Assembly (NCBI GenBank): GCA_938034975.1
Contig: CALHNI010000017.1
Coordinates: 5,130 to 69,129, forward strand
Reading direction: 5' to 3'
Origin: Candidatus Goldiibacteriota bacterium
Lineage (GTDB): Bacteria; Oederibacteriota; PGYV01; DYJU01
Length of the DNA: 64,000 bases
Made by a program: the position numbers and the translations under genes. Below, in pieces: positions 5,720 to 40,567 of this stretch (the stretch's first letter is position 1; the number at the start of each line of letters is the position of its first letter). The notes under the pieces are model-generated. The model was not told the DNA's origin. It saw only the letters and a program-made list of their open reading frames with translations, and did not search any database.

Positions 5720-5720
5720 A

Positions 5721-7650: not shown

Positions 7651-7672
7651 AGAATTGATTTAAGGATAAATT

Positions 7673-9730: not shown

Positions 9731-11109
9731 AAAAGATTATTTTAGTGTTAATGCAGATTATTTTTATTAATACTATTTATGCTTCTTCCGGGACAACATC
9801 GGTTTTTGATATTGGATTGTGTGTTAGGGCACAAACATTAGGCGGAGCTTTTGTTGCTGGTGAAAATGATACCTCCTATGTTTTTTACAATCCTGCCTGC
9901 CTTTATACACTTGATAAAATTGAATTACAGGGAGCATATATACCTTTACTTTTGGATACAAAGTTTAATTATATGGCATTGGGTTTCCCAACAATTGATT
10001 TTGGTGTTTTAGGTATATCTTTATCCAGAATAACAACAGAAAATATCTTAATGCGCGATTTAAATGGTATAGAAACAGGGAGAGAGACTCATGAGTTAAC
10101 AGAGATAATAGCCGGATGGGGAAAAAATTTCTTTATAAATAATTTTTCAGCAGGTTTTAGTATAAAAATTGATAATCAAAAGTTTGGGAGTTTAAACGAT
10201 ACTGCATTTGGTATGAACATTGGTTTTTTTTATAATTTATTAAGCGATACGGACAATAAATTAAATCTGGGTTTAAATATTAAAAATATTATTCAACCCG
10301 ATGTAAAGATGCTTTCCAGGAGTGATAAATTACCTAGGCAGTTTGTGGCCGGAATAAATTATGAAAGAAAAATATTTAATAATATAAAAGCAGGACTTTT
10401 TATTGATGCTTCTTTTTCAAAAGATACTGATTTTGAACACAATGAAGGAGTAGAGTTAAATTTTTTTAATGTGTTTTTTTTAAGAGCGGGCAATAATTCG
10501 TTTAATATTTTATCAGGAGGACTCGGTATAAATATTTTAAATATGTTTTATGCTGATTATGGAGTATTTTTTCTTGATTTTGAAACACAACACAGATTTT
10601 CATTTAAAATAAAAATAGGCGAGGATTTTTTTTCTTTGCGTAACCAAAAAGAAAAAATGGAAATGGAAAAAGTTGAAAGAAAAGCAAAAGAGATTGCAGC
10701 AAAAGAACTGGAACAGATGAAAAAACAAATGGAACAAATTAAAAAAAGAGAAGTAAAAGATGAATACTTTAAAGCGTTACATTATACCAATGGATTAGAA
10801 GCGTATAATCAGGGAGATTTAAAACTTGCGGATATTGAGTTTCAGACAGTATATAAATTAGATTCTGATTATTTAAATATAAAGTATTATATTGACCTTA
10901 TAAATAATTTAAGAAAAGATAAGATGGAAACTTATGATGCAAATATAATAAAATTATATCAGCAGGGAGTTGAAAAATATCTTGCCGGTGATTATGAAGG
11001 TGCTAAAAAAGAATGGAATAAAATTTTAAAAATAGATCCATATAATAAACTCGCAATTGATAATATTAAAGAAGTCAATGAAATTTTGAGAAGTATGCAA
11101 AGGGAATAA
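9727..11109 (+). CDS. Putative outer-membrane beta-barrel protein (PorQ/PorV/UPF0164-like N-domain) fused to coiled-coil + TPR C-terminus
   Basis: 460 aa with a signal peptide. N-terminal motif RAQTLGGAFVAGENDTSYVFYNPACL resembles the G-A-x-ALGGA...NPAGL signature of PorQ/PorV-type barrels. C-terminus has a KE-rich coiled coil followed by TPR-like YFKALHY...GDYEGAKKEWNKILKIDPYN. Confidence 0.55.
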   Translation: MKKIILVLMQIIFINTIYASSGTTSVFDIGLCVRAQTLGGAFVAGENDTSYVFYNPACLYTLDKIELQGAYIPLLLDTKFNYMALGFPTIDFGVLGISLSRITTENILMRDLNGIETGRETHELTEIIAGWGKNFFINNFSAGFSIKIDNQKFGSLNDTAFGMNIGFFYNLLSDTDNKLNLGLNIKNIIQPDVKMLSRSDKLPRQFVAGINYERKIFNNIKAGLFIDASFSKDTDFEHNEGVELNFFNVFFLRAGNNSFNILSGGLGINILNMFYADYGVFFLDFETQHRFSFKIKIGEDFFSLRNQKEKMEMEKVERKAKEIAAKELEQMKKQMEQIKKREVKDEYFKALHYTNGLEAYNQGDLKLADIEFQTVYKLDSDYLNIKYYIDLINNLRKDKMETYDANIIKLYQQGVEKYLAGDYEGAKKEWNKILKIDPYNKLAIDNIKEVNEILRSMQRE

Positions 11110-11114
11110 ATTTT

Positions 11115-13424: not shown

Positions 13425-13429
13425 ATAAA

Positions 13430-14689
13430 ATGTTAAAAAAATTTTTTTATAATAAAAATAACAAAGGTAAAATTTATGCAGTAATAGATAAGATGAATAA
13501 CTTTGATGTTAAGGTTTCAGATGATATTGTTAAGATAGTTGAAGACATAAAACTTAATGGTGATAAAGCAGTTAAAAAATATATTAAAAGGATTGATAAG
13601 GTTAATTTAAAAAATTTAAAAGTGACCAAAAAAGAAATATTAAATGCTTATAAAAAAATTGATAAAAAAATATTACCAGCAATTAAAACCTCAATAGAAA
13701 ATGTAAAAAAATTTCATCAGATGCAGATAAAAAATTTAAAAGGATATGTTTATAAAAATTATGAATATAAAATAATTCAGAAATATATACCACTTGATTC
13801 AGTCGGAGTTTATATTCCAGGGGGGCAGGCGCCTTTGTTTTCTACTGTTATAATGGCTTGCGTTCCTGCTATAATTGCAAAAGTTGGTAATATTATTATA
13901 ACTTCGCCACCAACTTTTAATAAAGGTATAAATCCGTATATTTTGGTTACAGCGGATATACTTGGTATTAATGATATTTATAAAATTGGCGGTGCTGTAG
14001 CAATAGCTGCTTTAACTTATGGAACAAAAACAGTTCCAAAAGTTGAAAAAATAGTTGGACCCGGGAATATATATACCACGATGGCTAAAAAATATGTCTT
14101 TGGTGAAGTTGGTATTGATGGTTTAAATGGTCCATCGGAAATTACCATATTGGCAGATGAGAGTGCAAATCCTAATTTTATACTTCTTGACCTTCTAGCC
14201 CAGGCAGAACATATAAATGGACATGCTTTATTTATAACGACATCTTTAAAAACAGCAGATTTTGTTGCTGATTATTTTAAGATGAATAATATAAAATATA
14301 ATATATCAATAATAATCATTGAAAATTTAAAACAGGGAATTGAATTGATTAATTACAAAGCGCCAGAACACCTTGAAATCATAGTGAAAAATCCGCAAAA
14401 AATAATTCCGCTTATAAAAAATGCACCTGCTATTTTTACAGGTAATTATTCTGCTGTTGCTTTTGGGGATTATATGGCAGGGGCTAACCATATATTACCA
14501 ACTAACGGAACAGCTAAATTTTCTTCGGCTCTTTCGGTTTTTGATTTTATAAAGCATACCCACATTGTATCTTGCAATAAAAAAGGTATTCAAAGATACG
14601 GGGAGAAGGTAGAGGCACTTGCCGAAAAAGAAGGACTTTTATATCATAAACTGAGTATTAAATGCAGGAGAACTTTAAAATGGAAATAA
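13430..14689 (+). CDS. hisD: Histidinol dehydrogenase
   Basis: 419 aa. Motifs VGPGNIYTT, AQAEH, PEHLEI and GDYMAGANHILPTNGTA. Confidence 0.95.
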   Translation: MLKKFFYNKNNKGKIYAVIDKMNNFDVKVSDDIVKIVEDIKLNGDKAVKKYIKRIDKVNLKNLKVTKKEILNAYKKIDKKILPAIKTSIENVKKFHQMQIKNLKGYVYKNYEYKIIQKYIPLDSVGVYIPGGQAPLFSTVIMACVPAIIAKVGNIIITSPPTFNKGINPYILVTADILGINDIYKIGGAVAIAALTYGTKTVPKVEKIVGPGNIYTTMAKKYVFGEVGIDGLNGPSEITILADESANPNFILLDLLAQAEHINGHALFITTSLKTADFVADYFKMNNIKYNISIIIIENLKQGIELINYKAPEHLEIIVKNPQKIIPLIKNAPAIFTGNYSAVAFGDYMAGANHILPTNGTAKFSSALSVFDFIKHTHIVSCNKKGIQRYGEKVEALAEKEGLLYHKLSIKCRRTLKWK

Positions 14690-15729
14690 TTGAACAAAAA
14701 ATAAAAAGATGTATAAAAGATTTTAAAAGTTATACACCTGTTTTATTTAACGGAAAATATAAACTTGATGCAAATGAAAATTCATATGAAATACCTGTAT
14801 TTATCAAAAAAAAAATATTAAGAAAAATTTTAAATATCCCTTTGAACAGATATCCAGACCCGGAAACAAAAGAACTAAAAAGAATTTTATCTAAAAAATT
14901 AAAAGTAAACAAAGATATGATATTTTTAGGGAATGGTTCTGATGAAATTATTTTTTATCTTTCCCAAACCTTTCTTGAAAAGGGTGATACCGTGATAATC
15001 CCAGTTCCAACTTTTGAAATGTATAAAATTATTTCAAAAATAAATGATGCAAAAGTGATTGAAATACCACTTACAAAAAATTTTGACCTTGATGATAAAA
15101 ATATAATAAAATATGCCAAAATAACAAAAGCAAAATTTATTTTCATTGCTTATCCGAACAATCCCACCGGAAATTGCTTTTCCAAAGATAAAATTATTAA
15201 TATCTTAAAAAACACAGATGCAATTGTTATAATTGATGAGGCATATTTTGAATTTTCCGGAAAGACCTTTATTAAATATTTGAAAAAATTTAAAAATTTG
15301 ATAATATTAAGAACATTTTCAAAAGCATTTTCAATTGCTGCATTAAGAGTAGGTTACATGATAGCAAATAAGGAAATTGTTAAAGTGGTAAATAAGGTTA
15401 AACTGCCGTATAATGTAAATTCTGTTTCGCAGTTGTTTGCAAAAGAGGTTCTTTTAAATGAAAGGTATTTAAAGCATAATATACAAAAAATAATTTTTGA
15501 ACGGGAGAAATTATTTGAAAAAATAAGTAAAAAATTTTTTGTTGTAAAAAGTGATTCTAATTTTTTATTTTTAAAAATTTTAGACAATAAAAAAGCAAAA
15601 AAAATTTTTAAAAAAAATAAAATATCAATAAGATTTTTTCAAAGTGGATATGCGAAAGATTTTATAAGAATAACAGTTGGAAAAAACAAAGAAAATAAAC
15701 TGGTCCTTGATATATTAAATAAATTATGA
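14662..15729 (+). CDS. hisC: Histidinol-phosphate aminotransferase
   Basis: 355 aa. Motifs LDANENSY, YPDP and YPNNPTGN; PLP-Lys region RTFSKAFSIAALRVGY. The more likely start is ATG 14680 (MEIIEQ), with SD aggag 9 nt upstream. Confidence 0.93.
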   Translation: MQENFKMEIIEQKIKRCIKDFKSYTPVLFNGKYKLDANENSYEIPVFIKKKILRKILNIPLNRYPDPETKELKRILSKKLKVNKDMIFLGNGSDEIIFYLSQTFLEKGDTVIIPVPTFEMYKIISKINDAKVIEIPLTKNFDLDDKNIIKYAKITKAKFIFIAYPNNPTGNCFSKDKIINILKNTDAIVIIDEAYFEFSGKTFIKYLKKFKNLIILRTFSKAFSIAALRVGYMIANKEIVKVVNKVKLPYNVNSVSQLFAKEVLLNERYLKHNIQKIIFEREKLFEKISKKFFVVKSDSNFLFLKILDNKKAKKIFKKNKISIRFFQSGYAKDFIRITVGKNKENKLVLDILNKL

Positions 15730-15740
15730 GGTGACAAAAA

Positions 15741-16328
15741 TTGAATAACAAAAGATTTGCAAAAATAAAAAGAAAAACAAAAGAAACATGTATAACAGGT
15801 AAAATTTTTTTAGATGGGGAAGGCAATTTTAAAATAAAGACACCAATCCCTTTTTTAACTCATATGTTAGAGCAGTTTTCAAAACACAGCAGGATAGATA
15901 TAAAACTTGATGTGACAGGAGATATAGATGTTGATCTGCATCATACCGTTGAAGATACCGGTATTTCATTAGGACAGGCAATTTATGATGCTTTGCAGGA
16001 TAAAAAGGGAATAAACAGATTTGGTATGGCTTATGGCGTTCTTGATGAAGCGCTTTGCAGAGTTGTTTTGGATATATCAGGGCGAACTTATATCAGTTAT
16101 AATGTTGATTTTTTGAAAAAAACTAAAGGTGAATTTGATGTGGGTTTAATAGAAGAATTTTTAAATGGCTTCGTAAGAGGCGGTAAAATTACCTTGCATA
16201 TAGATAAAATAAAAGGTAAAAATAATCATCATATCATTGAATCTGTATTTAAAGGACTTGCTCTTGCTTTAAGACAGGCAATTTTAAAGGAAGGCAAAAA
16301 TTTACCAAGCACGAAAGGGAAGATATAA
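15741..16328 (+). CDS. hisB: Imidazoleglycerol-phosphate dehydratase (monofunctional, no HolPase domain)
   Basis: 195 aa with TTG start after SD gaggtg. Motifs DLHHTVEDTGI and GKNNHHIIESVFKG. Confidence 0.95.
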   Translation: MNNKRFAKIKRKTKETCITGKIFLDGEGNFKIKTPIPFLTHMLEQFSKHSRIDIKLDVTGDIDVDLHHTVEDTGISLGQAIYDALQDKKGINRFGMAYGVLDEALCRVVLDISGRTYISYNVDFLKKTKGEFDVGLIEEFLNGFVRGGKITLHIDKIKGKNNHHIIESVFKGLALALRQAILKEGKNLPSTKGKI

Positions 16329-16960
16329 TGAAAAATTTAGTAGTTATAAATTATGGAATGGGAAATTTGTTCAGCGTCTTTAAAGCAATAAGACATTTGA
16401 ATATACCAGTAAAAATTTCTGACAAAAAAAAGGATATTCAAAACGCGGCAGGGCTAATTTTGCCCGGGGTTGGTGCTTTTAAAGATGCTATGAATGAAAT
16501 TCATAAAAGAAAATTATTTAATATTATAAAAAATGAAGTTGAAAAAGGGAAACCCTTGCTTGGAATATGTCTTGGTTTTCAGTTATTATTTACAAAAAGT
16601 TATGAGTTTGGTATATGTTCTGGTTTTGATTTCATAAAAGGAAATGTGGTAAGATTTAGAAAAGAAAGGAAAGTTCCTCATATGGGCTGGAATTCAGTAA
16701 AGATTATAAATTTAAGAAACAGAATTTTAAAAGGAATAAAAAATGATACTTATTTTTATTTTGTTCATTCATATTATGTTGTTCCTCTTGAAAAAAAAGT
16801 TGTTCTTACAACTACCAAATATGGCAGAACAGAATTTGTTTCTGCTGTAGAAAAATTAAATATTTTTGGTGTCCAGTTTCATCCGGAAAAAAGCGGTGAA
16901 AATGCACTATTAATTTATAAAAATTTTTATGAAATTTCAATAAATAATAATAAAGGGTAA
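16328..16960 (+). CDS. hisH: Imidazole glycerol phosphate synthase, glutaminase subunit
   Basis: 210 aa. Class-I GATase nucleophile GICLGFQLL; VQFHPEKSG. Confidence 0.95.
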   Translation: MKNLVVINYGMGNLFSVFKAIRHLNIPVKISDKKKDIQNAAGLILPGVGAFKDAMNEIHKRKLFNIIKNEVEKGKPLLGICLGFQLLFTKSYEFGICSGFDFIKGNVVRFRKERKVPHMGWNSVKIINLRNRILKGIKNDTYFYFVHSYYVVPLEKKVVLTTTKYGRTEFVSAVEKLNIFGVQFHPEKSGENALLIYKNFYEISINNNKG

Positions 16961-16964
16961 AAAA

Positions 16965-17696
16965 ATGCAAATATTACCAGCGATTGATATAAGAAGAGGA
17001 AAATGTGTAAGGTTAATCCAGGGGGATGTGCGTGATGAGATAGTATATTCAAACGAGCCTTTACAAATGGCAAAATACTGGATTGGTAAAGGAGCAAGAT
17101 GGATACATGTTGTTGACATTGATGGTGCTTTAATTGGAAAACCTAAAAATATAGATGTCATAATTAAAATTATTAAATCCATAGATGCCAATGTTGAGGT
17201 TGGCGGAGGTATCAGAACAGAAACTGATATTAAAAGATATATTAGAGCAGGAGTAAAAAGAGTTATATTATCAACTTCTGCTATTCTTTCTGAAGAATTT
17301 TTGGATGATATGTTAAAAAAATACAAAGAAAAATTGGTAATTGCAGTAGATGTTAAAAATAATTATATTGCTATAAAAGGATGGAAGGATATGACAGAGA
17401 TTAAAATGCTTGATTTTATTCAAAAACTTGAAAAAAAAGATGTAAAAAGAATTATTTTTACTGATATAAAAAGAGATGGTGTTTTGAAAGGACCTAATTT
17501 TGCAAGTATAATGACAGTCCTTAAAAATACCAAAATGAAGGTTATAGTTTCTGGTGGTATAAGCAGAATGAAAAATATAAAAAAGTTATTAGAATATGAA
17601 AAAAAATATGAAAATTTGGAAGGAATCATAATTGGACAGGCATTATATAAAGGCACTCTTGATTTAAAAGAAGTAATTGAAATTGCGAAAGGATAA
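16965..17696 (+). CDS. hisA: ProFAR isomerase
   Basis: 243 aa. Motifs ILPAIDI, VGGGIR and GIIIGQALY. Confidence 0.93.
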
Positions 17697-17702
17697 AAAG
17701 CG

Positions 17703-18461
17703 ATGCTTATAAAAAGGATTATTCCATGCCTTGATGTAAATAAAGGCAGGGTTGTAAAAGGGATTAATTTTTTAAATTTAAAAGATGCCGGAGATCCTGT
17801 TGAGGCAGCATTAAAATATAATAAAGCAGGTGCTGATGAGATTGTTTTTCTGGATATAACAGCGTCTTATGAAAAAAGAAAAACCATAGTTGATGTTGTT
17901 AAAAAAACTGCCGAATCCGTTTTTATTCCATTAACGGTTGGCGGTGGAATTAAATCAATAAAAGACATGGAACTTTTATTATTCAATGGTGCAGATAAAG
18001 TTTCAATAAATACCGCAGCTGTGAAAAATCCTTTTTTAATAAAAGAAGGAGCAAAAAGATTTGGGTCCCAGTGCATAGTCCTTGCAGTTGATGCCAAAAA
18101 GAAAGATAAAAACAAATGGGAAGTTTTTATATATGGCGGCAGAGAAAATACCCATATTGATGTTATTGAATGGATAAAAAAAGCAGAAGATTTAGGGGCA
18201 GGAGAAATACTTTTAACCAGTATGGATGCAGATGGGACCAAAGAAGGATATGATATAGAGTTAACTTTTAGAGTTTCAAAATCAGTTAAAGTTCCTGTTA
18301 TCGCTTCTGGTGGTGCGGGTAATCCGGAACATATGTATAAAGTTTTAAAGTATGGTTGTGCAGATGCTGTTTTAGCAGCTTCTATTTTTCATTATAAGGA
18401 GTATAGCATTAAAAAAGTAAAAGAATATTTAAAAAATAAAAAAATACCTGTAAGATTATAA
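17703..18461 (+). CDS. hisF: Imidazole glycerol phosphate synthase, cyclase subunit
   Basis: 252 aa. Motifs [30 protein letters not shown] and AASIFH. Confidence 0.96.
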
Positions 18462-18480
18462 TTTAAAAAGGAGTTTTAAA

Positions 18481-18876
18481 ATGAAATTTAATATGAAAAA
18501 ATTAAAATTTGATGAAAAAGGATTAATTCCGGTAATTGCACAGGATTATAAAACAAATGAAGTTTTAATGGTGGCATATATGAATAAACAGGCACTTTCA
18601 AAAACAATTAAAACAAAAAAAGCTCATTATTATAGCAGGTCTAGAAATAAATTATGGTTAAAAGGTGAGCAATCAGGAAATATTCAAAAGGTAAAAGAAA
18701 TTTACATTGATTGTGACAATGATACATTGCTTATGAAAATTGAACAAAAAGGAGGCGCTGCATGTCACACAGGTTATAAAAGTTGTTTTTTTACTAAGAT
18801 TACAAAAAATGGGGAACTTAAAATTAAAGGTAAAAAAATTTTTGATCCTGATAAAGTATATAGTAAAAAAGAATAG
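18481..18876 (+). CDS. hisI: Phosphoribosyl-AMP cyclohydrolase (HisI domain only, no HisE)
   Basis: 131 aa. Motifs [25 protein letters not shown] and [13 protein letters not shown]. Confidence 0.93.
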
Positions 18877-20366
18877 TGGGGTCATTGATGAAATTCAAAG
18901 AATTTTTTAAATTGGCACGAAAATATAATATAATTCCTGTGTTTAAAGAAACAATTGCAGATTTAGAAACGCCGCTTTCTGCCTATATGAAAATAGATAA
19001 TCCTAAATATTCTTTCCTTTTAGAAAGTATAGAAGGTGGTGAAAAAATAGCAAGATATTCATTTCTTGGCAGAGAGCCATTTATGACATTTTTTTATAAA
19101 AAAGGAGAAGTTCATATAAATTCAAAAAAAGAAAATAAAATAATACAAACAAATGATCCGCTTGGAGTTTTGAAAGACATATTTTCCAAATATAAAGTTG
19201 CGCCTGTAAAAGGATTGCCGAGATTTCATGGCGGCGCTGTAGGGTATATTGGATATGATACTGTAAAGTTATATGAAAAAGTCCCTTCACTTTTAAAAAA
19301 AGACAATCTTGACTGGCCAGATATATTTTTTATGTTTACTGATATAATAATGATTTTTGACCATGTTTCCCATAAAATACAGGTTGTTTACAATATTTTG
19401 GTTGAGGAAAAAGAAAATAAAAATTCATTGTTAAAGAAATATTCATCAGCGGTAAATAAAATAGATTCTATAATAAAAGAATTAAATAGGGATATAAAAA
19501 TTAGACATTTAAAAAAAGATAGAAAAAAAATGAAGGTTATTCATTATATATCAAAACAAGCATTTGAAACAAATGTTAAAAAAACAGTTGAACTTATTAA
19601 AAATGGAGAAGCAATTCAGGTTGTTTTATCCCGGCGTTTTGAGGTGCCTTATGAAGGGGATCCGTTGAATATTTACAGGTGTTTACGTATTGTAAATCCA
19701 TCACCTTATATGCATTATTTAAGGTTGGATGACAAAGTGATAATCGGGGCTTCTCCTGAACTTATGGTGAGGGTTGAAAATGGTAAAATTGAATTAAGAC
19801 CAATTGCAGGAACCAGACCCAGGGGTAAAACAGAAGAAGAAGATAAAAAATTAGAAAACGAACTTTTAAACGACGAAAAGGAAAGAGCAGAACATATAAT
19901 GCTTGTTGATCTTGGGAGAAATGATATAGGAAGAGTTGCAGAAATTGGGAGTGTAAAAGTAAAAGATTTAATGAAAATTGAAAAATATTCACATGTTATG
20001 CATATTGTATCAGGAGTAGAAGGGCAGTTAAAAAATGGTAAGGATATTTTTGATGTATTAAAAAGCACATTTCCTGCTGGCACAGTAAGCGGGGCTCCAA
20101 AGGTAAGGGCAATGCAAATTATAGAAGAAATAGAAGAAATAAAAAGAGGCCCTTATGCAGGTTTAGTAGGCTATATTAGTTTTTCTAAAAATCTTGATAC
20201 CTGCATTTCAATAAGAACAATTTATTTTCATAAAGGTAAGGTTATTATCCAGGCAGGTGCTGGTATTGTTGCAGACTCAATACCAGAGAAAGAATATAAT
20301 GAAACACTTAATAAAGCAAAGGCATTGTTTAAAGCAATAGAACTTTCTAAAAAAACAGAATTTTAA
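18876..20366 (+). CDS. trpE: Anthranilate synthase component I
   Basis: 496 aa. Motifs [47 protein letters not shown] and [10 protein letters not shown]. Start may be ATG 18888 (MKFKEFF) rather than GTG 18876. Confidence 0.88.
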
Positions 20367-20378
20367 GGAGTTAAAGTA

Positions 20379-20951
20379 ATGAAAGTTATAGTCATAGATA
20401 ATTATGATTCCTTCACTTATAATCTTGTCCAGTATATTGGTGAATGGACTAAAAATGTCAAGGTATACAAAAATGACGAAGTTACAATAGATTTTCTAAT
20501 AAAACAAAAGCCGACCCATATAATAATTTCTCCAGGTCCTTCCTGGCCTAAAAATGCCGGAATTTCAAAAGATGTTATATTAAATTTTATGAAAGAAATT
20601 CCTATACTTGGAGTTTGCCTTGGGCATCAATGTATAGTTGAAGCATTGGGTGGCAAAATAAAAAGAAATAAAGTTATAATGCATGGAAAAGTTTCACAAA
20701 TTTATCATGATGGCAAAGGTATATATAAGGGTATGAAAAATCCCTTTATAGCAACCAGATACCATTCTTTGGTTGCAGATGAAAAGACCCTTCCGGATGA
20801 ATTAATAATATCAGCTAAAACAAAAGCCAAAGAGATAATGGGAGTAAGACATAAGAAATACAAACTGGAAGGAGTCCAATTTCATCCGGAATCAATATTA
20901 ACGCAAGATGGAAAAAAAATCATAAAAAATTTTTTATATGATATGGAATAA
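20379..20951 (+). CDS. trpG: Anthranilate synthase component II (glutamine amidotransferase; TrpG/PabA)
   Basis: 190 aa. Motifs GVCLGHQ and GVQFHPES. Confidence 0.9.
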   Translation: MKVIVIDNYDSFTYNLVQYIGEWTKNVKVYKNDEVTIDFLIKQKPTHIIISPGPSWPKNAGISKDVILNFMKEIPILGVCLGHQCIVEALGGKIKRNKVIMHGKVSQIYHDGKGIYKGMKNPFIATRYHSLVADEKTLPDELIISAKTKAKEIMGVRHKKYKLEGVQFHPESILTQDGKKIIKNFLYDME

Positions 20952-20953
20952 AA

Positions 20954-22438
20954 ATGTATCTGATCATTGTTTTTCTTTTTTTTCAATTTTCATATTTATA
21001 TGCAAATACAGATAGTGTCGCTGTGGTAAATAATTTATCTGTTGAAAATAATATTGAAACTGCAATTACTACTACTACTTTATCACTTACATTAAGTGCC
21101 AATGCAGATAACGTTTTGCCGTTAAGTGTTTCCGAAAAGGTTGAAATAAATTACGCTGTTGAAAAAATAGATTTTGATACAAACACAATAAATACAATAA
21201 TTATTAAATGGTTTGGAAAAGAAAACATGGAATTTTTTTATAATGTTTACAAAAAGAAAGAAGGGGATCCAGATTTTTATAAAATAAATGAAAATCCGCT
21301 TTCTGTAACTTTTTATGTTGATGCTGATGTAAATACAGGGACTATTTATTATTATAAAGTAGAAACGATTGATTCGTTAGGTAATACTTTTTTATCAAAA
21401 GAATATTCTGTGAGATCAACTGATTTATATTTGCCATCTCCCCCTTTTGGTTTTAAGGTCTATCAGGATGTTGAATGCTCTGTGCTAAAATGGAATTCTT
21501 CTTCAAAAGGAACGTTTGAAATAACAGGTTATATCATTTATCGTGGTGAAGATGCTGAAAGCATGACAAAGATAGCAGAAGTTAAACCGACAGAATTAAA
21601 ATTTAATGATGAAGAGGTAATACCGGCAAAAAAATATTATTATAAAGTAACGGCTGTTGATGAAAGAAGGAATGAATCAAATCCAACAGAAATATTGAGT
21701 TGTGTACCTTTTCCAATGCAAAGAACATGTCTTATTCTAATGCCAACTGCTTACAGGAATGATATTTTTAATAATTGGGGATTGAACATTGATTTGAGTT
21801 ATACATATTATATAGGTGGAATATTTGGTGAGCATAATTTATTTCCTTATGGCAATGATTCAGATTCTTTTTTAAAGGTAGGAGCATCAATTTTAAGTGG
21901 AGATGTTAAATTAAGTGGATTTAATGATGAAAATCAGATTCCATCAATTGCTTTTGGATATGTTTATACGATTTTAATGCAGGATAAATTTGGAAGTTCG
22001 CAGACAACCGGAGTTCAGGCATCTTTCACTGGCAAAGAAAAAGAATCAATGAAAATGATGGGTGGATTTTATAGCGTCATAAGCAAAAAGGTGTTTTTTG
22101 ATATGAACTTGCATACAGGTTATATATTGGGAGAACAGATAAATTTTATACCATATTTATCAAAGTATCTTACTTTGGAAGATAATATTGTAGCACATGG
22201 TTATTTTATAGGGTTTTCAAGAAAGATTTTTTCCAGGATGGGATTGAGAACCGAAATTATAGTTCCGGCAGAAAATAAAATTAACCAATCATTATTGATG
22301 CCGGTTCAATATTTAATAAACACATATATTGATAGATTTATTAATTTTAATATAAGTTATTTCCATTTTAATGGCGGTTATGTATGGCTTGGTTATATAA
22401 ATTTTAAATTTACAATATTCCCCAACCCTTATAAATAA
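20954..22438 (+). CDS. hypothetical secreted protein: two fibronectin-III-like modules + C-terminal beta-rich (possibly membrane-embedded) domain
   Basis: 494 aa with a signal-like N-terminus. Two repeats of the FN3-like pattern: Y..Y.K......F.KINE.P......VDADV..GTIYYYKV and GYIIYRGEDAESMTKIAEV..TELKFNDEEVIPAKKYYYKVTAVD. The C-terminal ~240 aa has alternating aromatic strands. Confidence 0.5.
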   Translation: MYLIIVFLFFQFSYLYANTDSVAVVNNLSVENNIETAITTTTLSLTLSANADNVLPLSVSEKVEINYAVEKIDFDTNTINTIIIKWFGKENMEFFYNVYKKKEGDPDFYKINENPLSVTFYVDADVNTGTIYYYKVETIDSLGNTFLSKEYSVRSTDLYLPSPPFGFKVYQDVECSVLKWNSSSKGTFEITGYIIYRGEDAESMTKIAEVKPTELKFNDEEVIPAKKYYYKVTAVDERRNESNPTEILSCVPFPMQRTCLILMPTAYRNDIFNNWGLNIDLSYTYYIGGIFGEHNLFPYGNDSDSFLKVGASILSGDVKLSGFNDENQIPSIAFGYVYTILMQDKFGSSQTTGVQASFTGKEKESMKMMGGFYSVISKKVFFDMNLHTGYILGEQINFIPYLSKYLTLEDNIVAHGYFIGFSRKIFSRMGLRTEIIVPAENKINQSLLMPVQYLINTYIDRFINFNISYFHFNGGYVWLGYINFKFTIFPNPYK

Positions 22439-23756: not shown

Positions 23757-23957
23757 CCTGAAAATCGTATTAGGAAATTACGATTTTCAGAAGAAAAAAC
23801 CCAAAAATAAAAAAAAATATTTAAAAAATAAAATATTTAAAACAAAACTTGAGTTTTATTTTAAATTAAAAAATTGGGTGTATAAAAGTAATACAATATA
23901 AAAATAATAAAAAATTTTATTTTCCATAAAAAACGCGTTTTCTAACGCATTTTTACC
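23757..23957 (+). repeat. Family-1 intergenic repeat, copy C (H1 - core - H2)
   Basis: H1 cctgaaaatcg-tattaggaaatta-cgattttcag (23757-23790). Internal small hairpin aaaac..gtttt. Core gggtgtataaaagtaatacaatataaaaat. H2 ccataaaaaacgcgttttctaacgcatttttac (23924-23957). Confidence 0.75.
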
Positions 23958-23973
23958 CCAAAAATGGTTAATA

Positions 23974-28552: not shown

Positions 28553-29545
28553 ATGATAGATTTATCCTTAATGTCAAAGCAGGAAAAGATTATTATTATT
28601 TCTTTACTTGTTGCTATTTTCCTTTTACTTGTATTAATATTAACTCCTGCAAATTTCAGACAGGATAAAAAAGTAATGGCACCTGCTAATATTTTATCAA
28701 GTGGTGGTGGTCCAGGTGAAGGAAATGGATATTTTCAGACACCTCGCGATATTGTGGTTGATAAGGAAGGCAATATTTATATTGTTGATTCAAGGAATCA
28801 CAGAATACAGAAATTCAGCAGTGAAGGAGTTTTTTTAACAACCTGGGGTAAAGAAGGTGATAAACCAGGACAGTTTAAAGAACCATGTGGTATAGACATT
28901 GGACCAGATGGAAATATTTATGTGGCAGATACTTGGAATGGCAGAGTTCAGATTTTTGATTCAACTGGTAAATTTATAAAAGAGTTTGGAAAAGAACGTG
29001 GAATGTGGGGACCGCGGGATCTTGCCGTAGATAGAGATGGTAATATTTATGTGTGCGACACAGGCTGGTGTAAAATTGAAAAATTTGATAAAAATGGTGT
29101 TTATATAACTACTTTTGGTAAAAAAGGCGGTGGAACTTTGCCCGGGGAATTTAAAGAACCATTTGGAATAAAACAGGGACCAGATGGAAATTTATATGTT
29201 ATAGATAGGAAAAATTTCAGAATACAGATTTTAACCACAGAGGGTAAATTTATAAAAGATATAAAAATTGATGGCTGGTCAGAAAAACAAATAGATGGTG
29301 GTTGCCTTATGGAACCATATCTTGATATTGATAGCAAACGTGGGTTGATTTATGTTACAGATTCAACAAATCACAGGGTGTTAAGGTATAATTTAAATGG
29401 GAAAGATAAAAAAATATTTTTAAAAGATGAACGTGGTATGAATATGTTTGCCTGTCCGCTTTCAGTTGCTGTTGCCGGGGATGGACGCATTTTGGTAACT
29501 GATGCAGGTGTTGCAAAAATTATAACATTTATTGATAAAAATTAA
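28553..29545 (+). CDS. Membrane-anchored NHL-repeat beta-propeller protein 1
   Basis: 330 aa with an N-terminal TM helix. Six NHL-like repeats (PRDIVVDKEGNIYIVDSRNHRIQKF, PCGIDIGPDGNIYVADTWNGRVQIF, PRDLAVDRDGNIYVCDTGWCKIEKF and others). Confidence 0.85.
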   Translation: MIDLSLMSKQEKIIIISLLVAIFLLLVLILTPANFRQDKKVMAPANILSSGGGPGEGNGYFQTPRDIVVDKEGNIYIVDSRNHRIQKFSSEGVFLTTWGKEGDKPGQFKEPCGIDIGPDGNIYVADTWNGRVQIFDSTGKFIKEFGKERGMWGPRDLAVDRDGNIYVCDTGWCKIEKFDKNGVYITTFGKKGGGTLPGEFKEPFGIKQGPDGNLYVIDRKNFRIQILTTEGKFIKDIKIDGWSEKQIDGGCLMEPYLDIDSKRGLIYVTDSTNHRVLRYNLNGKDKKIFLKDERGMNMFACPLSVAVAGDGRILVTDAGVAKIITFIDKN

Positions 29546-29558
29546 AGGAGGTTGCTCT

Positions 29559-30572
29559 ATGTCTAATAAAAAATTAAAAAAAAGGAAAAAAATAAAAAAA
29601 TCCGGGAAGAAAAAGGGCAAAAGTTTCATAGTTTTTTTAATAACTTTAATTATCATCATCGGGTTTATTGCAATTTCAAAAATTAAAAAAGGAGATATAA
29701 TAAAAAATATACCATCAGAGATTATTTCAGTTATTGGAAAATCAGGAGATAAAAAAGGAGAGATAGGTTCTCCACGTGGGATTGCAGTTTCTCAGGATAA
29801 TTATCTTTATGTGACAGATCTTAAAAATAATAAGGTGATTAAATTTAAAACAAATGGCGAATTTGTAATGGAATGGGGAACACAGGGAAATAAAAGAGGA
29901 GAATTTAAAGAACCTTCAGGTGTTGCAGTTGATAAAGAAAATTATGTTTATGTTGCTGATGCATGGAATGGCAGGATTCAAAAATTTACTTCTGACGGTA
30001 AATACATTCTTGAAATAGGTGGTGTAAGTGCGAGTTTTTACAGTCCAAGAAATGTTGCTGTAAATAAATACGGAATTCTTTTCGTAGCAGATACAGGGAC
30101 ATCCAGAATACACAGATTTGATACAGAAGGGACAAGGATTGGAAATCCTGTAGGTGGGAAGGGAGTTGCAATAAATAATTTTGATGAAGTTTTTGGAATT
30201 GCGTTTGATTCAACTGGCAGGATATATGCTGCTGATCCTGGAAACAGGAGAGTTGTTGTTTTAACAGCAGATTTAAAACCGCTTGCCCAGATAAAAATAA
30301 AACCCTGGCTTGAAATAAAATCTTCCTGGCCAATGCTTGCAATTGATTCAAGGGACTATTTGTATGTTGTTTCAACGAACACACAGGATATATACATATA
30401 TGACACTAAAAATCCAAAATTTAAATACATAGCAACAATTAAGAACGATAATGCAGGTAAACCATTATTTGCAAGCCCATTAGGAATAGCCATAGATGCC
30501 AATGATATAATTTATGTATCTGACAGCGGGAAAAATCAGATTATTAAATTGCAACCAATATTTTCAAGGTAA
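29559..30572 (+). CDS. Membrane-anchored NHL-repeat beta-propeller protein 2
   Basis: The ORF opens at 29532, but SD aaaggagg precedes ATG 29559 (MSNKKLKK). Lys-rich N-terminus plus TM helix. NHL repeats (PRGIAVSQDNYLYVTDLKNNKVIKF, PSGVAVDKENYVYVADAWNGRIQKF, PRNVAVNKYGILFVADTGTSRIHRF and others). Confidence 0.85.
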   Translation: MSNKKLKKRKKIKKSGKKKGKSFIVFLITLIIIIGFIAISKIKKGDIIKNIPSEIISVIGKSGDKKGEIGSPRGIAVSQDNYLYVTDLKNNKVIKFKTNGEFVMEWGTQGNKRGEFKEPSGVAVDKENYVYVADAWNGRIQKFTSDGKYILEIGGVSASFYSPRNVAVNKYGILFVADTGTSRIHRFDTEGTRIGNPVGGKGVAINNFDEVFGIAFDSTGRIYAADPGNRRVVVLTADLKPLAQIKIKPWLEIKSSWPMLAIDSRDYLYVVSTNTQDIYIYDTKNPKFKYIATIKNDNAGKPLFASPLGIAIDANDIIYVSDSGKNQIIKLQPIFSR

Positions 30573-30588
30573 AATTGCAGGGCAAAAT

Positions 30589-31863
30589 TTGAGTGAAACA
30601 AAGGATCATCTTTTAAAAGATTCATTTATTCTTTTTTTAGCTACCAGTATAGTAAATTTATCTAATTTTATTTTTCATATGTATGTTACAAGAAAACTTT
30701 CTCCTTCTGATTATGGTGCTCTTGCCACTTTGCTTGCTTTGGTTATAATTTTTATAATGCCAGCCCAGGCACTTCTAATGACAGTTGCCAAAAAGGTTTC
30801 TATATATAAAGCCCATAATCAATTTGAAAAAATTCATGGTTTATTTAAAAAAACAACAAAATGGTTTTTGATTCTAGGTATGTTTTATTTTATTTTTTTT
30901 ATGGTTTTTTCCGGAGCAATAATGAAATTTTTTAATATGGACGATGTTGTTTTAATTGTAATTCTTGCATTTATATCAATTGTTGCAATTTTACTACCTG
31001 TTGTAAGGGGGATTTTGCAGGGACTCCAGAAATTTGCCAGATTCGGATTGAATTTGATTTCTGATGCCGTGTTCAGATTATTAAGTGTTATATTATTTAC
31101 AGGTCTTGGATTTGGTTTAAGGGGAGCACTTTTAAGTTCTTTATTTTCTGCTCTTTTAGCATATGTCCTTGGATTATTTATGCTTTCTGAATTTTTAAAA
31201 ATAAAAGAAGAAAATATACAATTAAAAAAGAGAGAATTTTTCGGATATGCATTGCCTGTATTTTTTTCAATGGTGGCTTTTTCAATATTAAGTTATATGG
31301 ATCTTTTTATAGTCAAACATTTTTATGAAAAAGAACAGGCAGGACTTTATGCCGTAACATCTATAATAGGAAAAGCATTTCTTTATTTCCCTATGGCTAT
31401 TGCCATGGCTTTATTCCCTAAAGTTTCTGAAAATTTCGAACTAAATAAAAATACAAAAGGTCTGTTGATTAAAAGTGTATTATTAACTGGATTAATAAGT
31501 TTTACAGGTTTTTTATTTTGTTATTTCTTTCCGGAATTTGTAATTAAACTATTAACCGGTGGAAAAAAATATCTGGAAATTACAGGGGTAGTGAAAATTT
31601 TCGGATTGGCAATATTGCCGCTTGTTCTTTTAAATGTAATTATAAATTATTTACTTGCCATACACAGATATTTTTTTATTTTTATAATGTATTCTGGTAT
31701 AATAGTATATGCAGGTTTATTGTGGTTTTTTCATAAAACATTTTATCAGGTTATTTTTATTTTGTTTTTAGTAAATTTGATTATATTTATATTAAGTTTT
31801 TGTTCAATTTTTATTTATGGAACGGTTAAAAAAAATTTAAAGGAGAAAATAGTTGGAATTTAA
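30589..31863 (+). CDS. Wzx-like polysaccharide/oligosaccharide flippase (MOP superfamily)
   Basis: The ORF is open from 30514 (449 aa) but overlaps the upstream gene by 59 nt. TTG 30589 (LSETKDHLLKDSF) lies just after the upstream stop. About 12 TM helices with the polysaccharide-biosynthesis-protein pattern. The exact start is uncertain. Confidence 0.75.
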   Translation: MSETKDHLLKDSFILFLATSIVNLSNFIFHMYVTRKLSPSDYGALATLLALVIIFIMPAQALLMTVAKKVSIYKAHNQFEKIHGLFKKTTKWFLILGMFYFIFFMVFSGAIMKFFNMDDVVLIVILAFISIVAILLPVVRGILQGLQKFARFGLNLISDAVFRLLSVILFTGLGFGLRGALLSSLFSALLAYVLGLFMLSEFLKIKEENIQLKKREFFGYALPVFFSMVAFSILSYMDLFIVKHFYEKEQAGLYAVTSIIGKAFLYFPMAIAMALFPKVSENFELNKNTKGLLIKSVLLTGLISFTGFLFCYFFPEFVIKLLTGGKKYLEITGVVKIFGLAILPLVLLNVIINYLLAIHRYFFIFIMYSGIIVYAGLLWFFHKTFYQVIFILFLVNLIIFILSFCSIFIYGTVKKNLKEKIVGI

Positions 31864-32581
31864 GAAACTCTCAATTTTAATGCCAATGTATAATGAAGAA
31901 ATTTATGCAGCAGCAAATATTCTTGAAACTGATGAATATTTTAAAAATTTAAATATTTCTTATGAAATCATAGTTGTTGATGACGGTTCGGTAGATTTAA
32001 CATATAATAAGGTAATTTCTGTTAAGAAAGAGCATATCAGGATATATAAACTTTCAATAAATCAGGGAAAAGGACAGGCATTAAAAGAAGCTTTTAAACA
32101 AAGTTCAGGAGATTTAATAATGTTTTTAGACGGGGATTTGGATATAAAACCAGAACAATTTCAAATTCTTTTTGAGATTATGAAAAAGGAAAATGCAGAT
32201 GTAGTTATAGGTTCAAAAAGGCATCCCCAATCAATTTTACATTATCCATTAAAAAGAAAGATACTTTCCATAGGTTATTTTTTTATTGTAAAAATTCTTT
32301 TTGGTTTACCAATTCATGACACACAAACCGGTATTAAAATTTTTAAAAGAGAGGTTCTTGAAAAAATTTTTCATAAAGTTTTGATAAAAAGATATGCTTT
32401 TGACCTTGAATTACTTATACTTGCCCACCATTATGGTTTTAAAATTGCAGAAAGTCCTGTTGTTGTTGATTATAAAGGCAAATTCGGGCATATTACTTTA
32501 AAAACTATTTTTCAGATATTCTGGGATACAATGGCAATCTTTTACAGATTATATATATTAAAATATTATGATAAAAGGTAA
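31853..32581 (+). CDS. GT2 glycosyltransferase, polyprenol-phosphate sugar synthase-like (DPM1/GtrB-like)
   Basis: 242 aa, TTG start after SD aaggag. Motifs LSILMPMYNEE, VVDDGSVD and FLDGDLD (DxD). Soluble, with no TM tail. Confidence 0.85.
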   Translation: MEFKKLSILMPMYNEEIYAAANILETDEYFKNLNISYEIIVVDDGSVDLTYNKVISVKKEHIRIYKLSINQGKGQALKEAFKQSSGDLIMFLDGDLDIKPEQFQILFEIMKKENADVVIGSKRHPQSILHYPLKRKILSIGYFFIVKILFGLPIHDTQTGIKIFKREVLEKIFHKVLIKRYAFDLELLILAHHYGFKIAESPVVVDYKGKFGHITLKTIFQIFWDTMAIFYRLYILKYYDKR

Positions 32582-33581
32582 TTTACCAAATAAAATGGAT
32601 AAAAAAGTATCAATTATAATACCTGTAAAGAAAATAAATGATTATATAAAAGAATCTCTTAAATTTATAAATAAATTAAATTATGAAAAAAATCTGATAG
32701 AAGTTATTATTTTGCCTGATGAAAAGGAAAATTTTTCAGATAAATTTCCTTTTACCTTAAAAATTATTGAAACAGGACCTGTATATCCTGGTATAAAAAG
32801 AGATATAGGGTATAAAAACAGCACAGGAGAAATTATTGCATTTATTGATGATGATGTTTATCCGTCTGAAAACTGGCTTTTATCAGCGGTTAAAATTTTT
32901 GAAAAAGATGAAAATATTGGGGCAATAGGCGGTCCGGCAATAACGCCTCCTTCTGATTCTTATTTCCAGAAAGTAAGTGGGTTTATTTATTCATCTTTCT
33001 TAGGAGGTGGAAATTATTCATATCGCTATTTGCCGCAAAAAGCACGGCAGGTTGATGATTATCCCTCCTGCAATCTTATTATAAGAAAAGATGTTCTTGA
33101 TAAAATAAATGGATTTAATACTGAATTCTGGCCAGGAGAAGATACTGTCATTTGCCTTAAAATAATAAAAAATTTAAAAATGAAAATTTTTTATGATCCA
33201 AATGTATTAGTTTATCATCATCGCAGAAAATTTCCAGCAGGTCATTTGAATCAGGTAAAAAGTTATGGGTTGCACAGGGGTTATTTTGTAAAAAAATTTC
33301 CTGAAACATCTTTCAGATTATCATATTTTTTTCCTTCTTTGTTTGTTTTATATTTGTTAAGTTTGTTAGTTGTGTTACCCTTTATAAAAGGGTTATTTTA
33401 TTTGATATGGCTTTTACCTTTTTTATTTTACATAATTTTTTTAATTATTGATGGAATAAGATTTTATAAATATTTACCTTTTGTTATGGTAGGTATTTTT
33501 ATAACGCATATTTTTTATGGTGTTTATTTTATTAAGGGTTTATTAGCCAAAAGATTAAAAGAGGAGACAGAAAATAAATGA
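32568..33581 (+). CDS. GT2 glycosyltransferase with C-terminal TM helices
   Basis: 337 aa. Motifs VSIIIPVKK, FIDDDVYP (DxD) and FWPGEDTV. Hydrophobic C-terminal third. Start possibly ATG 32595. Confidence 0.85.
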   Translation: MIKGNLPNKMDKKVSIIIPVKKINDYIKESLKFINKLNYEKNLIEVIILPDEKENFSDKFPFTLKIIETGPVYPGIKRDIGYKNSTGEIIAFIDDDVYPSENWLLSAVKIFEKDENIGAIGGPAITPPSDSYFQKVSGFIYSSFLGGGNYSYRYLPQKARQVDDYPSCNLIIRKDVLDKINGFNTEFWPGEDTVICLKIIKNLKMKIFYDPNVLVYHHRRKFPAGHLNQVKSYGLHRGYFVKKFPETSFRLSYFFPSLFVLYLLSLLVVLPFIKGLFYLIWLLPFLFYIIFLIIDGIRFYKYLPFVMVGIFITHIFYGVYFIKGLLAKRLKEETENK

Positions 33582-35026
33582 AAATAATGATATCTTATCC
33601 GCCATTAAAAGGAGATGGCTCTCCTACTCTTGGTCAGAACAGGCAATTCCAGTGGTTTCATAATCCTTCATTTATTTACCCTATGGTGCCTGCTTATGCA
33701 GCAACTTTACTTAAAAATTCAGGTTACGATGTTGTATGGAATGATTCCATAGCAGAAAAATTATCATGGGAAGAATATATAAAATTACTTGAAAAAGAAA
33801 AGCCGGATTTAATTTTTTATGAAACCAAAACGCCTGTTGTAAAACAACACTGGGAAATAATAAAAAAGGTAAAAGATATTTTGCCGGATGTTAAAATAGT
33901 TCTGGCAGGGGATCATGTTACCGCTTTACCTGAAGAAAGTATGATAAATTCAAAAACTGATTTTATCATAACAGGTGGGGATTATGATTTTCTTATTTTA
34001 AATCTTGTAAAATGGATTGAAAGAAAAGAAGATTTAGAACCTGGTATATGGTATAGAGAAAACGGAGAAATTAAGAATACCGGTGCTTTTATTTTAAAAC
34101 ACGATTTAAATTCATTACCTTTTATAGACAGGGAACTTACCAAATGGAAGTTATACGGTGAGAAATTTTTTAAATATTCACCCTATACTTATACAATGAT
34201 AGGCAGGGATTGTCCCTGGGCAAAATGTACTTTTTGCTCCTGGACAACCCTGTATCCTAATTTTAGAACAGCAAGTCCTGAAAAATTACTTGATGAGATA
34301 GGGCTTTTAATTCAAAAATATGGTATAAGAGAAATATTTGATGATACTGGAACTTTTCCAAGAGGAGAATGGCTTAAAAAATTTTGTGAGGGGATGATAG
34401 AGAGAAAATATAAAATTTCATTTATGGCTAATTTCAGGTTTGATTACATAAATGAAAAAATTGCTCCTTTGATGAAAAAAGCCGGATTCAGGTTATTGAA
34501 ATTTGGATTGGAATCAGCGAACCAGAAGACACTTGACAGATTATGTAAAGGAACCAAAGTTGAAGACATAGAAAAAGGATGCAAAATTGCAAAAGATGCT
34601 GGGATTGGCGTGCATCTTACAATCATGGTTGGTTATCCATGGGAGACCAGGGATGATGCAATGCGGACTCTTGATATGGCAAAAAAGTTACTTGATAAAG
34701 GATTGGCTGATATGCTTCAATCAACGGTTGTAATTGCATACCCTGGGACACCACTTTATAAACAAGCAGTTGAAAATAACTGGCTGAGATTTCTACCAGG
34801 CGAGTGGGAAAAGTTTGATATGACATATCCAGTGTTTAAATTTCCTGATATGAAACCCGAAGAAGTAATGAAGATATGTGATGATATTTATAAAGCTTTT
34901 TTAACACCAAGATTCATTATGCGGCAGATTTTAAGTATAAGGTCTTTTGAGGATTTTGCTTTTTTATTCAAAGCAGCTAAAGCAGTTGCAGGTCATATTC
35001 TTGATTTTATGAGGAAAAAAGAATAA
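33578..35026 (+). CDS. B12-binding-domain radical SAM enzyme
   Basis: 482 aa. N-terminal Rossmann-like B12-binding region (PDLIFYETKTPVV...VLAGDHVTALPEE). Cys cluster GRDCPWAKCTFCSW. Downstream rSAM core (FGLESANQKTLDRL). Confidence 0.85.
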   Translation: MKIMISYPPLKGDGSPTLGQNRQFQWFHNPSFIYPMVPAYAATLLKNSGYDVVWNDSIAEKLSWEEYIKLLEKEKPDLIFYETKTPVVKQHWEIIKKVKDILPDVKIVLAGDHVTALPEESMINSKTDFIITGGDYDFLILNLVKWIERKEDLEPGIWYRENGEIKNTGAFILKHDLNSLPFIDRELTKWKLYGEKFFKYSPYTYTMIGRDCPWAKCTFCSWTTLYPNFRTASPEKLLDEIGLLIQKYGIREIFDDTGTFPRGEWLKKFCEGMIERKYKISFMANFRFDYINEKIAPLMKKAGFRLLKFGLESANQKTLDRLCKGTKVEDIEKGCKIAKDAGIGVHLTIMVGYPWETRDDAMRTLDMAKKLLDKGLADMLQSTVVIAYPGTPLYKQAVENNWLRFLPGEWEKFDMTYPVFKFPDMKPEEVMKICDDIYKAFLTPRFIMRQILSIRSFEDFAFLFKAAKAVAGHILDFMRKKE

Positions 35027-36055: not shown

Positions 36056-36091
36056 AGAAATTTTTTAAAAGTTAAACTGCTTTTATAACTT

Positions 36092-36266
36092 CCGTAAAAA
36101 CTCATTTTCTAACGCGTTTTTACATCAAATAAAACTCCTTAATACATATATCAAGTTCAGGTATAAAACTTAATAATACAGAATTACCTCTGTATCCTTT
36201 GTATGTCATCTCTGCTTCATTTTTCTCTGTCCTGAAGATCGCATTAAAAGAGTGCGATTTTCAGGG
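36092..36266 (+). repeat. Uncoupled family-1 hairpins: H2 (36092-36123) and H1 (36231-36266) separated by unique sequence
   Basis: H2 is ccgtaaaaactcattttctaacgcgtttttac. H1 is cctgaagatcgcattaaaagagtgcgattttcaggg, followed by acttatttttt. The family core motif is absent between them. Confidence 0.65.
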
Positions 36267-37046: not shown

Positions 37047-37065
37047 AATAGTATCATTATAATGA

Positions 37066-40559: not shown

Positions 40560-40567
40560 GTTACCAA

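Follow-up and report, generated by a model that had tools for sequence, protein, structure and literature searches.

Copy C of a dispersed repeat family, the locus considered here, lies in a 64-kb stretch of contig CALHNI010000017.1 (hereafter the window, ~28% G+C), between the divergent promoters of a CvpA-like gene (-) and a DUF2298 gene (+). The family had been proposed from the letters of the window alone (the sequence-only reading), and our analysis confirmed it: six core-bearing copies, three of them complete (B, C, and E), and three solo hairpins lie where that reading had placed them (Table 1). We searched with an nhmmer profile built from an alignment of the copies, as well as with patterns in which mismatches were allowed. 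All of the listed copies were recovered by nhmmer at E=1e-20 to 3e-45 and the solo right-hand hairpins (H2) at E ~1e-4 to 7e-4, while the solo left-hand hairpin (H1) was found by pattern. A 34-mer of H2 had three matches in the window at three or fewer mismatches, versus zero expected from shuffles. Complete copies are 202-221 bp long and have no coding capacity; the sole open reading frame (ORF) that touches any copy (44556-44900) has no Pfam match and overlaps a clpB remnant.

In the aligned copies the parts follow one another in a fixed order, namely H1, an A-rich spacer, a weak hairpin, the core, a second A-rich spacer, and H2. H1 consists of CCTGAAAATCG, a loop, and CGATTTTCAGG, and starts with CCTGAAAAWCG. 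The weak internal hairpin (AAAACAAC....GTTTT) can be seen clearly in four copies (C, D, E, and F) and is less marked in the other two, A and B. The conserved core is GTGAATAAAAGTAATRYAYTATAAAAAT, which holds the near-palindrome TAATGCATTA, and H2 consists of CCGTAAAAACGC, the loop ATTTTCTAAT, and GCGTTTTTACGG, with its right end reading ...CGTTTTTACGG. The H1 pattern that had been written for the whole family is matched exactly only by E; copies C and F and the solo hairpin at 36231 each depart from it by one mismatch, and it does not describe copy B or the copy on L004, which carry a variant that we call H1b (CCTGAAAAACG, a short loop, then CGTTTTTCAGG). L002, L004, and L005 are contigs of two other metagenome-assembled genomes (MAGs) in which copies were also found. 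Each end of the element is palindromic and folds as a hairpin of ~12-15 bp. In B, C, E, and L004 the left 45 nt can also be aligned with the right 45 nt taken as its reverse complement, in an imperfect match of ~40-45 bp that runs beyond the hairpins, and the H1b stem (B, L002, and L004: CCTGAAAAACGC..GCGTTTTTCAGG) is nearly identical to the H2 stem. Because of this match between the ends and between the stems, the two terminal hairpins are best described as terminal inverted repeats of 40-45 bp that are also self-complementary. Conservation extends over the whole 210 bp rather than the hairpins alone, at 70-90% between copies; A, B, and the L002 copy are mutually 88-90% identical (A-B 88%, A-L002 90%), and E and F are 89% identical.

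Table 1. Members of the repeat family and associated features in the window, followed by the separate repeat of the closest relatives
Feature	Position	Strand	Search result and context
Copy A, 5'-truncated: core and perfect H2 (-20.2 kcal/mol), no H1	1805-1928	+	nhmmer 1804-1927, E=1e-25
Left 6-bp duplication TAGAAA of copy B	2446-2451	.	sequence compared with L038 and L040
Copy B, complete (H1b, spacer, core, H2)	2452-2661	+	nhmmer 2452-2660, E=3e-45; between recX and alaS
Right 6-bp duplication TAGAAA of copy B, followed by the alaS ribosome-binding site	2662-2667	.	sequence compared with L038 and L040
Copy C (locus of the sequence-only reading), complete, with 22-nt internal deletion and decayed H2	23757-23958	+	nhmmer 23757-23957, E=7e-32
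Solo H2, 37 nt past the stop codon of a GT2 gene	36092-36125	+	nhmmer 36090-36123
Solo H1 (-20.9 kcal/mol), 13 nt upstream of the -35 of the LysM-gene promoter	36231-36265	.	pattern search, one mismatch
Solo H2, 22 nt past the lptG stop codon, abutting an unrelated ~390-bp inverted-repeat element	40568-40601	-	nhmmer 40569-40630 (-)
Copy E, complete	44384-44604	-	nhmmer 44604-44386, E=4e-45
Copy F: H1, small hairpin, and core, no H2; antisense to both neighbours	53645-53803	-	nhmmer 53802-53645, E=9e-27
Copy D: small hairpin and core; H1 and H2 both reduced to remnants or lost	58921-59060	+	nhmmer 58912-59056, E=1e-20
~350-nt repeat of the closest relatives	L038 ~7690-8030; L050 ~4798-5200, ~5870-6200; L054 ~8140-8480, ~12130-12560; L053 ~19700-20010

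One line of evidence for mobility comes from copy B, which is located exactly at the recX-alaS junction. The element is absent from this junction in relatives: recX overlaps alaS by 8 nt in L038/L039 (AlaS 79% identical), and the two genes are 13 nt apart in L040 (AlaS 70% identical). The flanks of copy B read ...AAAATTT TAGAAA | CCTG... on the left and ...ACGG | TAGAAA ATAAAGG... on the right, and deletion in silico of the copy together with one TAGAAA yields AAAATTTTAGAAAATAAAGG, which is equal in length to AAAATTTTTAAAAATAAAGG in L038. The same deletion restores the ancestral recX frame, which ends inside alaS, and the distance from AAAATTTT to the alaS ATG is exactly 20 nt in L038, L040, and the reconstructed window. 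From these alignments we identify TAGAAA as a 6-bp target-site duplication at copy B, and a duplication at this position sets the ends of the element at the outer bases of H1 and H2. The present recX stop codon (TGA, 2454-2456) falls within H1. The family had been described as wholly intergenic, and this holds in general but not strictly for copy B. The duplicated target keeps the alaS ribosome-binding site intact.

To place the window among known lineages, we compared its proteins with those of Goldbacteria MAGs, which are 63% (AlaS), ~70-75% (SecA), and ~58-63% (RelA) identical; these three proteins place the window in Candidatus Goldbacteria/Goldiibacteriota. The closest MAG available is GCA_973628015.1, with identities of 79% for AlaS, 92% for SecA, and 79% for RelA and with conserved gene order. 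Neither nhmmer nor pattern searches found a copy of the family in L038-L043, L050-L052, or L053-L055. These contigs come from relatives whose proteins are 60-92% identical and whose gene order is conserved; they add up to ~167 kb and include the orthologous orf141-recX, GT2-LysM, lptG-rpmB, PMT_2, and etfB-secA regions. The lptG-rpmB gap, for example, is 73-86 nt long in L053, L054, and L055 versus 527 nt in the window.

Outside the source genome, copies were found on the three contigs named above. A scan of the GTDB genomes with the H2 pattern gave seven matches, of which only those on L002, L004, and L005 are real. The same scan of JGI metagenomes gave 29 matches, all of them single chance matches without the palindrome, and that of IMG/VR gave two, presumed to be chance. 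No match to copy B was found by blastn in plasmid and phage collections. L002 and L004 are JACVJA01 contigs (26% G+C) from a MAG labelled "Ca. Calidifonticultor" (Actinomycetota), and we suspect that they are misbinned. L005 is a CALJNE01 contig (34% G+C) from a MAG labelled Bacteroidales, but its GH9 protein is Goldbacteria-like, with Thr-rich linkers and the C-terminal domain of the GH9 protein in the window, and this contig at least looks Goldbacteria-like. The L005 copy is antisense to both neighbouring genes. As it lies upstream of a GH9 gene, like copy E, we considered whether the two are orthologous and rejected this; the GH9 proteins are only 27% identical, which indicates that they are paralogues and that the insertions are independent. 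Subfamilies cut across genomes, with A and B grouping with L002. Short-read contigs of the same organism end in copies (L008 in H2 of copy B, the Logan contigs L044 in the solo hairpin at 36092 and L046 in copy D), and L002 begins within one. The presence of the family accounts for the breaks at operon boundaries in short-read assemblies of this organism and is of practical use in binning, assembly, and annotation.

The copies are in different states of decay. Truncation differs from copy to copy, solo hairpins exist, the stability of H2 spans -20 to -4 kcal/mol, and the L004 copy has its H2 loop inverted with respect to the core. A rearrangement may have taken place at copy E. In L053 and L054 clpB lies between PMT_2 and GH9, while the window lacks clpB and has copy E at the position that this gene and its promoter take up in relatives (44605-44902 of the window against 16582-20033 of L053). 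The region that follows clpB (44640-44815), with its terminator hairpin (44773-44812), is kept directly beside the copy. This suggests an element-associated deletion or translocation of clpB. An 886-aa ORF on L004 was examined as the missing clpB and rejected, as it resembles a class I aminoacyl-tRNA synthetase. Near copy F, ~20 nt from its H1, is a degenerate H1-like palindrome (53823-53856, minus strand; CCTGAAAATTAC...TATATCAGG) that may be the remnant of a second insertion.

With regard to placement, the window has nine intergenic gaps that measure 100 nt or more, and members of the family are present in eight of them. The earlier statement that every multi-gene block is delimited by a copy fails only at the empty gap, 56108-56239. 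Copies had also been said to point toward the downstream gene. A through E do so and the antisense copy F does not, but A, C, and E lie in divergent gaps (that of A between the promoters of orf141 (-) and recX (+)), where a copy always faces a "downstream" gene, and there is therefore no demonstrable orientation bias. The co-directional gaps hold sense copies in two cases (B and D) and an antisense copy in one (F).

The sequence-only reading was correct in noting near-consensus sigma70 promoters just beyond the elements. At five sites the end of an element or hairpin lies 10-16 nt upstream of a -35 hexamer, namely at 1939 (A), 23974 (C), 36279 (solo H1), 59070 (D), and in L004; consensus scores are 12/12 at 36279 and 59070, 11/12 at 23974, 9/12 at 1939, and 10/12 at 1943. 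At copy C the distance to the -35 hexamer is 13 nt on the left side and 16 nt on the right, and copy D ends 10 nt before the sigma70-type promoter of an ABC operon. The LysM promoter is conserved in L054, where H1 and the rest of the element are absent, and the sequences past H2 are unrelated between copies. Judging by these comparisons, the promoters adjoining the copies are those of the host. Without copy C the two -35 hexamers at its site would be ~28 nt apart, so proximity to promoters is largely forced in divergent gaps. Where the flanking genes are co-directional, the element may prefer A/T-tract DNA that resembles UP elements (the target of copy B is also an A/T tract), or the spacing could reflect selection.

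We believe that the family is probably a non-autonomous DNA transposon of ~205-221 bp, a MITE (miniature inverted-repeat transposable element), that spread recently through the intergenic DNA of one uncultured Goldbacteria lineage. One branch of the sequence-only reading had proposed a mobile element, and the empty site and 6-bp duplication at copy B, the absence from ~167 kb of relatives, the subfamilies shared between genomes, and the truncated and solo copies all agree with it. Inverted-repeat ends together with a duplication fit DDE-type chemistry and not that of Y1/HUH enzymes. A transposase encoded elsewhere in the genome would recognize the ends in trans, and a staggered cut would duplicate 6 bp of an A/T-rich target. 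Purifying selection would then confine the surviving copies to intergenic DNA, which in such a compact genome would amount to the borders of operons and the spaces of a few bases that part divergent promoters. Once inserted, the copies decay: mismatches build up in H2, and loss of the ends leaves solo hairpins behind. They may also mediate rearrangements, as clpB is missing at copy E. At recX-alaS the element would have supplied a new recX stop codon and moved apart two genes that had overlapped, with the ribosome-binding site downstream left intact, making this a clean example of the insertion of such an element. Hairpins of REP, ERIC, and Correia repeats in read-through mRNA are known to act as stabilizers, RNase sites, or weak terminators (PMC10969869), and it is conceivable that the stable hairpins described here act as 3'-end stabilizers, RNase targets, or weak terminators in read-through transcripts.

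Among known bacterial MITEs, the Correia/NEMIS elements of Neisseria offer a close parallel. They are likewise ~100-250 bp long and non-coding, have terminal inverted repeats and, like copy B, a target-site duplication, and occur between genes in high copy number, commonly a short distance upstream of a gene; they too form subfamilies, include truncated copies, and are co-transcribed with their neighbours, with repeats that form RNA hairpins (PMC10969869, PMC2229807). However, there is no sequence similarity, and Correia elements duplicate TA, whereas the one visible duplication here is 6 bp. Their 26-bp repeats pair with each other, while here each 40-45-bp end is self-complementary, and they have demonstrated outward promoters and an IHF site, neither of which was detected in this family. 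The pneumococcal BOX, RUP, and SPRITE elements are also modular, hairpin-forming intergenic repeats that cluster and insert beside one another (PMC3049150, PMC10969869). They are transcribed with their neighbours, SPRITE is terminator-like, and several unrelated families occur in one genome, as in the window. Their sequences and hosts are unrelated to ours, and the internal modules of BOX are variable in number, a feature absent here. Within the reach of Rfam, the collections of plasmids and phages, and the literature searched, the family has no sequence match to any known one, in agreement with the sequence-only reading, and a literature search on repeats in Goldbacteria found nothing relevant. 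We regard this as a new family of an ordinary kind of element and not as a new regulatory system or type of genetic system.

Several observations weigh against a MITE. The duplication is visible at only one of the four copies that have both ends, B, and not at C, E, or L004; E is located at a deletion junction. No parent insertion sequence or transposase was found among the ORFs scanned, which adjoin the copies and have ordinary housekeeping Pfam domains; the ORFs inside the long operons (5303-22438 and 28553-35026) lay outside the Pfam scan, and their listed orthologues carry no transposase domain. About 70 kb of the source genome was examined, and the genome-wide copy number is an extrapolation. 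The regular spacing of 10-16 nt to a strong -35 hexamer in four or five cases is explained only partly by tolerance of insertions. Lastly, no block is as well conserved as the core with its near-palindrome, and this holds even for the diverged copy on L005. Conservation that is higher in the core than at the ends is not usual in a MITE and hints at selection for a function.

It is intriguing to consider that the MITE has been co-opted as mobile operon punctuation, although we think this doubtful. The hairpin ends would then serve as bidirectional RNA 3'-end or insulator structures and the palindromic core would be bound by a protein of the host. Copies that insert 10-16 bp upstream of a strong -35 hexamer would rewire or insulate promoters genome-wide, and Goldbacteria lineages would independently have recruited unrelated repeats to the same intergenic sites. 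The regular promoter spacing is the main support for this idea, and the conserved core is the second.

Systems of the IS200/IS605 and RAYT type, which use a Y1 transposase, make no target-site duplication and have asymmetric ends. PATEs, which derive from IS200/IS605, insert 3' of a tetra- or pentanucleotide that is fixed, have asymmetric ends without an inverted-repeat relation, and make no duplication. REPs are G+C-rich, share a conserved GT[AG]G head, and make no target-site duplication. The family could be of this general kind, with H1 and H2 as independent palindromes moved as single-stranded hairpins by RAYT or an IS200/IS605-type Y1 enzyme, and with the 210 bp as a mosaic of two palindromes and a linker like BIME-1/RIP. 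This would account for the solo H1 and H2 hairpins, the H2 that is flipped relative to the core in L004, the near-identity of the H1b and H2 stems, the tendency of hairpins to lie just past stop codons (22 nt at 40601, 37 nt at 36092, and 3 nt in L005), and a REP-like density of about one per 8 kb. We nevertheless consider it unlikely. The 6-bp duplication at copy B is not made by Y1 transposition, and the whole 210 bp is conserved at 70-90%. The GT[AG]G tetranucleotide is absent from the 5' foot of the palindromes, as H1 starts with CCTGAAAA and H2 with CCGTAAAA in all copies. There is likewise no conserved flanking target, the left flanks being TAGAAA, TTGTTT, AAAATA, and CTTTAT. None of the ORFs scanned carries a Y1 transposase domain, although these come from only ~70 kb of the genome. 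PATEs are short and non-coding and have a hairpin near each end, like our element, but here the hairpins are terminal, the ends are inverted repeats, the left flanks differ, and copy B is flanked by a duplication. Mobilization by IS200/IS605 or RAYT, at which the sequence-only reading had hinted because of the hairpins, therefore does not agree with hairpins that are terminal inverted repeats and with the duplication at B. REP and BIME sequences, including BIME-1/RIP and REPINs, are ~35-nt extragenic palindromes, single or paired with a linker (PMC3184786). They resemble the family in their variable relative orientation, in their location after stop codons and between operons, and in a frequency of one per ~5-10 kb, and differ from it in that here the whole 210-bp unit is repeated, copy B is flanked by a duplication, and the stems are A/T-rich with small G+C clamps.

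Another explanation is that the host has retained the copies as punctuation, for what they do rather than as selfish DNA. The hairpins, just upstream of strong promoters, would terminate or insulate transcription in both directions or be bound by a regulator or a nucleoid protein, and the core would be a protein-binding site. The occupation of eight of nine large gaps and the conserved core speak for this, as do the hairpin ends upstream of 11-12/12 promoters at 23974, 36279, and 59070 and also in L004, and the solo H1 (36230-36266) passes a terminator-like scan thanks to flanking T-rich sequence. We hold it to be improbable, in part because close relatives have these genes and promoters but not the element, and unrelated repeats fill the same gaps in them. 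Copy F is antisense, with no promoter beside its end. H2 of copy B is followed directly by the alaS ribosome-binding site, and alaS has no promoter of its own after the copy; as alaS is essential, transcription has to run through both hairpins of the copy to reach it, and H1 and H2 are thus not strong terminators in that orientation. In both hairpins the T-runs are base-paired inside the stem, with no U-tract outside it, and a terminator scan flagged nothing at A, B, D, E, or F and only a 5-pair inner stem in C. Canonical intrinsic terminators do occur, at 37063-37102 and 44773-44812 in the window and at ~1440-1490 in L056.

Covariation is absent from H2: 82.2% of cells are paired versus 81.7% in shuffles, and seven of 15 pairs depart only by breaking. 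There is no structural selection on H2, which decays without compensation, and the copies are truncated in different ways. H1 shows a single T:A to A:T swap between subfamilies, too little for a covariation test. No sigma70-like pair was found on the sense strand of copy B and only weak 9/12 matches elsewhere, and sigma54 spacing, read by eye, does not fit. Rfam gave no match for the whole window at the gathering score and none for 1400-2700 at E<=1; two other intergenic regions gave chance-level matches only, none of them on the element. The other branch of the sequence-only reading, a terminator or insulator plus promoter cassette or a small RNA, is not supported in view of the host promoters beside the copies, the lack of a sigma70-like promoter in B, read-through into alaS, the decay of H2, and the absence of an Rfam match. 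A multicopy gene for a small RNA of ~70-90 nt that starts at the core and ends at H2, or an antisense counterpart of it, is very improbable: the core has a TATAAA/TATAAT-like motif on both strands and H2 follows it after ~45-60 nt, but a -35/-10 pair with the spacing of sigma70 was not found in the element, the putative transcript is variable and rich in A with a 22-nt deletion in C, H2 lacks a 3' U-tract and is decaying, F and D have no H2, and Rfam has no match.

Besides this undescribed family, which we take to be a MITE, at least two further repeat families are documented here in Candidatus Goldbacteria, a candidate phylum known mainly from MAGs and single-cell genomes. The second family consists of units of ~270-310 nt at 1449-1729 (-) and 53979-54291 (+), 84-87% identical, with a related unit at 40383-40435. 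It makes up the whole 5' leader of orf141 and etfB, from just past the -10 to the ribosome-binding site, and carries two to three C5/G5 hairpins (tcccccttt..aaaggggga), with an extra tandem 53-nt hairpin unit in the etfB copy. The orthologous leaders in L038 and L050 lack it, with the promoter ~35 nt from the ribosome-binding site. This second family is a mobile element that inserts into leaders or, alternatively, a regulatory leader that the two genes share. A third element of ~390 bp (40177-40564) has 15-nt terminal inverted repeats (GTAATCGGTTAGTTA / TAACTAACCGGTTAC) and lies 3 nt from a solo H2. Both it and the solo H2 are absent from the lptG-rpmB gap of L053, L054, and L055, and the third element may have targeted the H2 hairpin.

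In sister lineages, repeats unrelated to those of the window occupy the same intergenic sites. A ~350-nt repeat of the closest relatives (taatagttcagccaccagaagtgaacttgtaaaagtgtggcta ... aagcaagattgctttgtcaggc ... ttctaccagtggctaaactgtta; Table 1) has apparent paired segments and lies in the same kinds of intergenic sites and sometimes in the same gaps. More distant relatives have another intergenic repeat (cacttgaaatcc.cgcttgaactttaataacagg...) beside G/C-rich hairpins (L040 ~230-330 and ~490-590; L052 ~4490-4700). Within the window, the largest direct-repeat families are Thr-X linkers (TNTPTNT...) at 46700-49100 and 52200-53150, in a 1519-aa GH9 protein and a 1327-aa CBM protein. The genes for these two proteins have a common 300-nt 3' end that is 72% identical (49132-49431 and 53192-53491), and the C-terminal domain of the GH9 protein is also found in the GH9 protein of L005.

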